64,000 bases of DNA from an uncultured Chlamydiae bacterium (lineage in GTDB: Bacteria > Chlamydiota > Chlamydiia > Chlamydiales > SM23-39). Shown here piece after piece: positions 20,299-20,855 of the stretch. The notes beneath the pieces are model-generated. The model was not told where the DNA came from. It saw only the letters and a program-made list of their open reading frames with translations, and searched no databases. The stretch spans positions 608,001 through 672,000 of the forward strand of contig CAWHDP010000002.1 in the NCBI GenBank assembly GCA_963828125.1, read 5' to 3'. The position numbers and the translations under genes were made by a program. Position 1 is the first letter of the stretch, and the number at the start of each line of letters is the position of its first letter.

Positions 20299-20855
20299 GT
20301 GCGACACGAGGTCGCTGGAGGGAATTGTCTTGAGACCACTCCTTATGCGCGCGGTCAAAACGGAAAACCTGATCAAATACCTGAATGTGAAAATTCAGGG
20401 GTGGGTCAATTATTACGGCACTGCGTAGCAAAAGCGACGTTTAACTACTTAGACAATAGCATATTCTGGATAGTTTGGAAGTGGGCCAAAAGGCGACATC
20501 AGAACAGGGGGGCATCCTGGATCCGGAAAAGGTATTACACTACCTTGGGACTCAGAAAGTGGTGCTTCTACTCGAAGGTGAAAGCGGGAAAACAAGAATC
20601 CCGTATTCTTCTCACTCTGGCACAACGCACGAAGATCGAAAGACACGTGAAGGTCAGGTCGGAAGCTTCGCCGTATGATCCCGATTTTAAGGAATATTTC
20701 ATAAAACGGAAAGGAGAAAAGATGAGAAAAAAAAATGATAGCTGGGTGATATGAGCCTTAAGAGAGGCTTGAGCCGTATGATGGGAAACTATCACGTACG
20801 GTTCTTAGAGGAGGAAACTAGGGCAACCTAGTTTCCTTACTCAACTTTTGATTGG
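20273..20855 (+). repeat. 36-bp att-like repeat, copy A, split by the group II intron
   Basis: TGGGGGCGGCTGGACGGATTCAGAAC (20273-20298) + TTTTGATTGG (20846-20855). Confidence 0.85.
20299..20845 (+). mobile_element. Internally deleted group II intron
   Basis: 5' GTGCG. Maturase domain X fragment LIKYLNVKIQGWVNYY / WKWAKRRH. Domain V GAGCCGTATGATGGGAAACTATCACGTACGGTTC, domain VI hairpin and 3' AAC. Confidence 0.92.

Follow-up and report, generated by a model that had tools for sequence, protein, structure and literature searches.

Within the window, the whole stretch of 64,000 nucleotides analysed here, a 547-nt relic of a group II intron occupies positions 20299-20845. As a first-pass annotation had proposed, it sits precisely in an att-like repeat, a placement borne out by its splice ends, by Rfam and by its joined flanks. 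The features of the locus are as follows (window coordinates, strand).

18649-20054, minus: transposase gene (441 aa), whose end abuts the recombinase remnant
20081-20298, plus: 3' remnant of a large serine recombinase (LSR) gene, residues ~423 to the end, with an in-frame TAA at 20228-20230
20251-20274, plus: P arm of att site A, the end of an earlier island, from half-site alignment; probable crossover between G and G at 20274/20275
20275-20298, plus: P' arm of att site A, +1 to +24, which is the 5' exon
20286-20291 and 20293-20298, plus: IBS2 (ACGGAT) and IBS1 (CAGAAC)
20290-20298, plus: putative zinc-domain motif ATTCAGAAC, numbered after an excerpt of PMC3783163
20299-20343, plus: 5' splice end of the intron with the first domain I stem (nt 1 to ~50 of the full-length element, less a further 6 nt)
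20344-20754, plus: 3' end of the intron protein (IEP), domains X and D with no endonuclease; frameshift near 20415, stop at 20752-20754
20769-20845, plus: intron domains V (AGC triad) and VI (bulged A) and the 3' end AAC, from Rfam
20846-20855, plus: 3' exon TTTTGATTGG, P' arm +25 to +34, completing the codons T-F-D-W
24347-24382, plus: att repeat B, empty, with CC at -10/-11 (a poorer IBS2) and a degenerate LSR-like end before it
25168-25203, plus: att repeat C, empty, a perfect intron target
27385-27466, minus: tRNA-Tyr(GTA), targeted in the chromosome by the island array; in reverse, its 3' end reads TGGGGGCGGGCGGAC

To the left of the array lies an Rhs gene of 1,519 aa (13889-18448) and, at 7941-11951, a Type I-E CRISPR cse1 split by a Mutator-family transposase, with a cas3 fragment beside another transposase. 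The cargo between repeats A and B includes HigBA-like and Gp49/HTH toxin-antitoxin pairs (22200-22837 and 23578-24086).

The element starts with GTGCG at 20299 and ends at 20845 with the last bases CTCAAC. It shows the features of a group II intron, namely a 5' GUGYG, a 3' AY, precise insertion, a domain V with its AGC triad and a domain VI with a bulged A, and the match to RF00029 (domains V-VI) over 20769-20845 scores 64.2 bits (cut-off 40). The exact insertion point lies between GGATTCAGAAC and TTTTGATTGG. When the 547 nt are removed, the joined flanks match repeat C at 21 of 21 positions (25183-25203) and repeat B at 18 of 21 (24362-24382), as the annotation had claimed; none of 100 shuffled controls matched.

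Alignment with full-length relatives of 2,136 and 2,142 nt shows that nt 1 to ~50 and ~1640 to 2142 survive in the relic, ~1,590 of ~2,140 nt having been deleted. Both splice ends are present, as first described, but the loss is greater than the 'most' of domains I-III and of the RT core allowed for at that stage: EBS1 and EBS2, domains II and III and RT0-7 are gone entirely. Domain X likewise persists, but is broken by the 1-nt frameshift near 20415, which divides the Pfam GIIM match between two frames. With EBS1 absent and nearly all of domain I also missing, the relic would not be expected to splice. The internal junction at 20343/20344 bears short microhomology, and a copy elsewhere in the window's own genome (G000), on contig C1, has the identical junction; relative to that copy (at C1:405071) the 5' stem of the relic has lost 6 nt more. 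In run X2, which together with X1 may represent the source sample of the window, one contig crosses 19900-20623 with two differences and no gaps and another crosses 20744-21225 exactly. Given these contigs and the copy on C1, the deletion is not an assembly error of the window contig alone.

The C1 copy belongs to a paralogous site-A block (401838-405314, minus strand), in which the deleted intron has a second cut, at nt 352, and pieces of 21802-23260 are retained. Two unrelated group II relics on the same contig (309510-310229 and 406807-407665) have a similar anatomy, with the 5' end, RT7/X and domains V-VI kept around a large internal deletion; the former looks like class C and is preceded by a hairpin and a T run.

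The att repeat and its recombinase islands

Read on the opposite strand, the repeat core gives the 3' end of tRNA-Tyr, the gene at 27385-27466. The LSR remnant reads in frame as ...KEWGRLDGFR(T) into the intron and matches P0007, a protein with PF00239, PF07508 and PF13408, at 79%. Its C-terminus has 82 longer relatives, the full-length ones carrying the same three domains, and a match to it is present in 63 of 251 genomes of the order; matches of the LSR to CcrA/B/C are weak and below cut-off. In G000 we found the family only as C-terminal remnants. The adjoining transposase, which has no match in Pfam or NCBIfam and further copies at C1:444663-445412 and C2:17737-18443, is probably the cause or a marker of the loss of the LSR 5' part.

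Across the order, 27 of 29 LSR loci run into the 3' end of tRNA-Tyr, tmRNA or tRNA(CAT) and two do not; ARAGORN called 17 of these gene ends and 10 were recognised by sequence. The empty motif GACRBRWTCAGAACTTT has 236 matches in 133 of 401 genomes, with 2 control hits on our reading of the table. In all five islands that we picked from coordinates and fetched, the motif marks the far island boundary, on the LSR strand and upstream of that gene. In addition, the joined form ...D(G/A)FRTF ends five database proteins (P0031, P0035, P0038, P0060 and P0079), with C-termini such as WGRLDGFRTFDW and WRWRDAFRTF. The gene-end data, the far-boundary position and the joined C-termini together support the assignment of the repeat motif as the predicted P' arm of the att site of LSR islands. 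The named records with the closest introns, and one with a recombinase, are chlamydial, and an environmental chlamydia is accordingly the probable host.

The left and right ends of the island agree from TG/G on, with GGAC-like motifs nine bases to either side. The symmetry of these motifs and the point at which the two ends stop agreeing place the likely crossover at 20274/20275, so that the intron would lie 24 bp away, after +24. The GAAC of the arm stands at +21 to +24 in P' and at +16 to +19 in the tRNA and tmRNA arms. For LI integrase, according to an excerpt of PMC3783163, the 25-bp attP half-site carries its zinc-domain motif, 9 bp long, at positions 16-24, and the motif of attB lies 5 bp further inward. 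The same 5-bp shift of the outer motif is seen here between P' and B'; it is not evident in the P arm, where half-site alignment gave no good mirror image of the putative motif. By this numbering the intron would land just outside the predicted zinc-domain motif ATTCAGAAC.

Several displaced or further att-like sequences were also seen. At G000 C2:1378251-1378325 a recombinase P arm is joined to tRNA-Tyr sequence that breaks off after 60 nt, at the anticodon loop; this is a right end displaced a long way from the array. TRNA-Tyr ends are similarly cut off behind several LSRs. A third att type (CAGGCAAT.GGACGTAATCAGAAC) occurs in tandem copies at L176 (G143), L123 (G243), L143 and L153, and no tRNA end of G000 matched CAGGCAAT. 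Three G000 copies (C2:1066927, 1644816 and 1671903) end in a tRNA-Phe-like 3' end read backwards and are possibly att sites of another island family.

An intron lineage at P' arms

The first-pass annotation suggested that the intron lineage may home to a serine-recombinase att site, and named a one-off ectopic insertion as the opposing outcome. The former holds up: an LSR C-terminus lies upstream, the target is an island-boundary repeat, all visible junctions fall in the arm, and EBS1 and EBS2 pair with it. Nor is the insertion a single event, as lineage loci recur in att arms. We count 14 such loci with at least one visible junction, identical sequences and the C1 duplicate being counted once. 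At all nine 5' junctions that are visible, the exon ends in CAGAAC, preceded by a (G/A)GAC motif (window, L031, L034, L055, L096, L108, L123, L183 and L188), and all nine visible 3' exons start with TTT (window, C2:983454, L031, L032, L055, L061, L110, L114 and L126), six of them with TTTTGAT. L183 was supplied by a search pattern containing the junction, a search that is no specificity test; a flank-blind search of 103 genomes with the intron 5' end alone returned six matches, all six behind a P' arm. Both ends lie on one contig at three loci only, and only L031 and L055 are full length. These two, the full-length homologues that the annotation had hoped for, are flanked by P' arm sequence and have open YADD ORFs.

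At least three P' types are occupied, those of tRNA-Tyr (GGGGCGGC), of tmRNA (GAGGTGGAG) and the third type (CAGGCAAT), and each is also seen empty, once in tandem on the same contig (L176); this implies that the insertions were independent. Of the 14, the least secure is the copy at C2:982952-983454, which is truncated at its 5' end and has a flank, TTTTTCCCAT, that bears no more than a resemblance to tmRNA-type arms nearby. Run X4 contains loose ends, left out of the count, that show an undeleted 5' end and two more TTTTGATTGG 3' flanks. Also kept out of the counts were L120 (a degenerate 5' end behind a P' arm) and L130 (a lineage-like domain VI but an unclear 3' end), neither of which was assigned, and five candidates found by domain V only (at least 85%; L105, L113, L119, L131 and L112) were rejected since their domain VI or protein is that of other lineages.

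Occupied sites number at least 10-12 (two candidates per genome scored) against the 236 empty motif matches in order-wide samples, a rough comparison that would put occupancy of the arms at a few percent at most. A core-only pattern, noisy and with many control hits, is of qualitative use only; among the 150 of its 202 matches that were listed, none carried the intron. In the viral collection we found no relative of the intron protein and no junction match, and among the best 15 of 499 plasmid matches there was no close copy, the best being 67% on the Simkania negevensis plasmid NC_015710.1. DNA runs X1-X4, whose contigs show presence only, yielded neither a joint nor a spliced nor an empty-site form, and in RNA runs X19 and X20 0.05-0.07 of words were present.

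In the IEP tree, which holds 27 of 30 rows (seven less than half filled) and omits L096, L061 and L134 (<110 aa), the copies with att junctions form one clade (support 100/98), with L056 outside; three of nine tree members have no visible junction. L056 is the nearest sister (84% protein identity) and has a different EBS1, CUUUUA, and unrelated flanks. The att preference thus appears shallow in the tree. The ends of a copy in G080 resemble those of L056, however, and for this reason L056 may instead be a retargeted member of the att lineage.

Judged by its sequence, the intron is IIB/CL-like and without endonuclease, and its homing would be base-pair homing of the ordinary kind. The full-length protein of L031 scores 377.8 bits against TIGR04416 (cut-off 300), with YADD present. 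The best PDB match of the intron protein is chain C of 6ME0, which we take to be TeI4h (565.6 bits, E 6e-169), followed more weakly by LtrA (153.6 bits) and the IIC RTs (~130 bits); the tree contained no named reference proteins, and these PDB scores suggest a CL affinity of the protein only tentatively.

Pairing of EBS1 and EBS2 with the arm, one of the checks that the annotation had proposed, is evident in the att lineage at 6 of 6 and 4-5 of 6 positions, respectively. A blind scan of the aligned domain I for the stretch most complementary to each lineage's own 5' exon identified EBS1 as GTTCTG, opposite the last six exon bases (36 of 42 pairs in seven lineages, next best 25; L045 is misaligned in this region and scores low), and EBS2 as TACGT, opposite -9 to -13 (21 of 25 pairs in five lineages, next best 16). 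GUUCUG thus faces CAGAAC (-6 to -1) and AUACGU faces AC(G/A)NAT (-13 to -8). At most occupied sites EBS2 is mismatched at -10, a position variable among att sites; the window forms 5 of 6 pairs and L055 forms 4 of 6. In L188 the EBS2 is AUGCGU and pairs at 6 of 6 positions with its own exon ACGCAT. The sisters covary as well, with CUUUUA against TAAAAG in L056 and ACGCAA against TTGCGT in L040. An alternative EBS2, AAUCUG, was rejected because its pairing falls within domain I and the blind scan had favoured UACGU. By eye, no covarying base for EBS3 was identified in the alignment; L056 has the same candidate region but a G at +1. Six empty G000 sites pass a simple EBS filter and only two of them are P' arms, so pairing alone may not explain the specificity; upstream protein contacts are likely to add to it.

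Sister introns were seen at other repeated targets. Four copies in G147 (L047-L050) lie in Rhs YD-repeat coding DNA, with TAYGAY at IBS2 and matching EBS1 and EBS2, and this sister apparently homes to Rhs repeats. Two others (L037 and L045) are inserted in the transposase motif NTLKNQGY.F.HN.G/H, the slash marking the junction; the same motif is empty in the window transposase (18649-19974).

A model of homing to the att arm and its alternatives

Taken together, these data make it very probable that the relic derives from a 2.14-kb, endonuclease-less IIB (CL-like) intron whose lineage retrohomes by RNA-DNA pairing to the P' arm of LSR islands. Group II introns of this kind use replication-fork primers (PMC4424553, excerpt), as the present lineage presumably would. 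These islands, a widespread family, integrate at the 3' ends of tRNA-Tyr, tmRNA and tRNA(CAT) genes and stack as tandem arrays. The P' arm forms the far boundary (attL) of the integrated island and, in the excised circle, would follow the recombinase gene to give the C-terminus W..LD.FRT/FDW. Being located in the last codons of the recombinase gene as well as in the att site, the intron might be transcribed from that gene. At site A, an earlier island's recombinase end is immediately followed by the arm of a second island. Once inserted there, the intron would have lost ~1,590 nt via short microhomology, the block would have been duplicated to contig C1, and decay would have followed.

More tentatively, and on balance doubtfully, the lineage may be specialised on the recombinase binding motif itself, inserting exactly at its outer edge, leaving the half-site usable, hitchhiking on all islands of the family to tRNA-Tyr, tmRNA and other targets, and being mobilised and spliced only with excision, when the circle encodes FRTFDW. 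If so, intron mobility would be coupled to island excision, and the intron would be silent in the integrated island, with splicing needed for the circle-form C-terminus FRTFDW. As the intron splits the T codon, splicing would restore it.

A reading compatible with the facts behind our main proposal, though it would weaken the att-specific interpretation, and one we regard as possible, is that the homing site is conserved as the recombinase C-terminus (FRTFDW) of the circle. The intron would then be a plain recombinase-gene intron, much as Ll.LtrB is one of relaxase genes, and its overlap with the att site incidental. Variation downstream of the junction is mostly synonymous in the recombinase frame (GAT 29 and GAC 11, TTT 45 and TTC 3, TGG in 41 of 50 empty sites), which suggests that FDW may matter as protein in the circle, and the targets of sister introns are conserved coding motifs in transposases and in Rhs repeats. 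Yet both EBS pairings fall within +12 to +24, inside the predicted recombinase half-site; all occupied sites that can be seen are island boundaries, with an LSR end preceding only the one in G000; and the IBS2 codon varies non-synonymously (A, V, G, T, K, M). The invariance of IBS1, fixed by the search pattern, is no evidence here.

The effect of insertion on the island is a separate matter. The proposal that it blocked excision at site A is not borne out: the intron lies after +24, outside the 16-24 zinc-domain motif, and the C-terminal remnants that are all G000 retains of the LSR family sufficiently explain immobility. That such insertions generally block recombination and trap the island seems to us unlikely, if still worth weighing. 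Conservation extends past the junction to +34 (40-50 of 51 at most positions, +25 to +27 being partly fixed by the search pattern), but over +28 to +34 it looks like coding constraint. Position +25 of the 25-bp half-site becomes G instead of T, while the 16-24 motif remains intact. None of the fetched occupied sites has a full-length LSR of the family nearby, but many empty sites also have no recombinase close by, and G000 has remnants only.

We consider it improbable that the intron entered a P' arm only once, long ago, and was then carried along by the islands and by duplication, with no active att preference. The C1 copy is a plain duplicate bearing the identical deletion, most of the copies survive as broken pieces and mobility was not seen. 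Against this, the occupied arms differ at +1 to +15 according to att type while their introns are 86-97% identical, and att types cannot interconvert by recombination, since a crossover swaps only the other arm; the EBS2 of L188 has changed to fit its own exon, and the full-length copies retain open YADD ORFs. The present junction table also suggests that the intron tree is incongruent with P' arm and cargo. Finally, attC-like structural recognition of a folded single-stranded att site, prompted by the partial dyad symmetry of this recombination site, is scarcely credible given a protein far closer to 6ME0 (565.6 bits) than to IIC RTs (~130), an EBS2 that exists and covaries, and occupied sites that mostly have an unrelated left arm and hence no dyad.

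Retrohoming to the P' arm by base pairing, our preferred reading, can be tested directly, as full-length copies (L031 and L055) and defined EBS sequences are available. The novelty would lie in the target, a recombinase att arm that doubles, under certain conditions, as the end of the recombinase gene; the base-pair homing itself is ordinary. The position of the insertion may, in addition, indicate how far outward the att half-site extends, in an LSR island family that is apparently little described and is common in the order.

Comparison with known systems

In the literature that our search covered we found nothing on introns homing to serine-recombinase att sites or on the present island family. 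The recombinase resembles the LI/A118 integrase in its Resolvase, Recombinase and Zn-ribbon domains, half-sites of ~24 bp, tandem att repeats and, between P' and B' though not evidently in the P arm, an outer motif shifted by 5 bp (PMC3783163, excerpt); the present islands, in contrast, appear to target tRNA and tmRNA 3' ends, so that att encloses the end of the gene itself.

On the intron side, the nearest systems are EcI5 and the T. elongatus TeI3/TeI4 families (CL/IIB1), 6ME0 being the closest solved maturase to the present protein. Compared with these, the present ORF lacks the endonuclease, is ~80 aa short of the 562-aa chain, and belongs to an intron whose target is an LSR att arm. According to the excerpted part of PMC2882425, the TeI3/TeI4 families diverge by EBS change, some targeting IS elements or a tRNA gene, and internally deleted fragments such as TeI3n are also known in Thermosynechococcus elongatus. 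TeI4f even has an identical EBS1 (GTTCTG), but its 5' exon is an ABC-transporter pseudogene (PMC2882425, excerpt). UHB.I2 (IIB/CL1) is likewise a CL1 intron associated with a site-specific recombination array, but in an integron cassette context (PMC7923331, excerpt). Ll.LtrB in conjugative relaxase genes is also a homing intron in a mobility gene of a mobile element; it is, however, a IIA intron in mid-gene, whereas the present host frame runs across the intron only when island ends are joined or stacked (PMC6003770, excerpt).

The parallel with IIC-attC introns drawn in the first-pass annotation survives as ecology and fails as mechanism. Like S.ma.I2, the present lineage is specialised on the recombination site of another mobile system; the IIC-attC introns, however, are class IIC and recognise by structure the attC of an integron tyrosine integrase, whereas the present intron is IIB, sits in a serine-recombinase arm and pairs through EBS1 and EBS2 (PMC3001079, excerpt). 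A class C IEP, absence of EBS2 and insertion in an integron attC, which mark that group, are not found here. Terminator targeting of the IIC type, suggested by hairpins that precede some of the tmRNA-type sites, was rejected because the intron does not belong to class IIC and a hairpin is missing from several occupied sites. Among the three intron specificities recognised in the review PMC4424553 (excerpt), homing site, terminator and attC, the present intron falls under the homing-site kind. If the tentative coupling to excision is right, it would be the serine-recombinase counterpart of the IIC-attC introns. Bacterial group II introns are known to reside in other mobile elements, but in the literature covered here integron attC is the only recombination site described as the target of a whole lineage; the present case would be a second such solution, arrived at independently and involving another intron class and another recombinase family.
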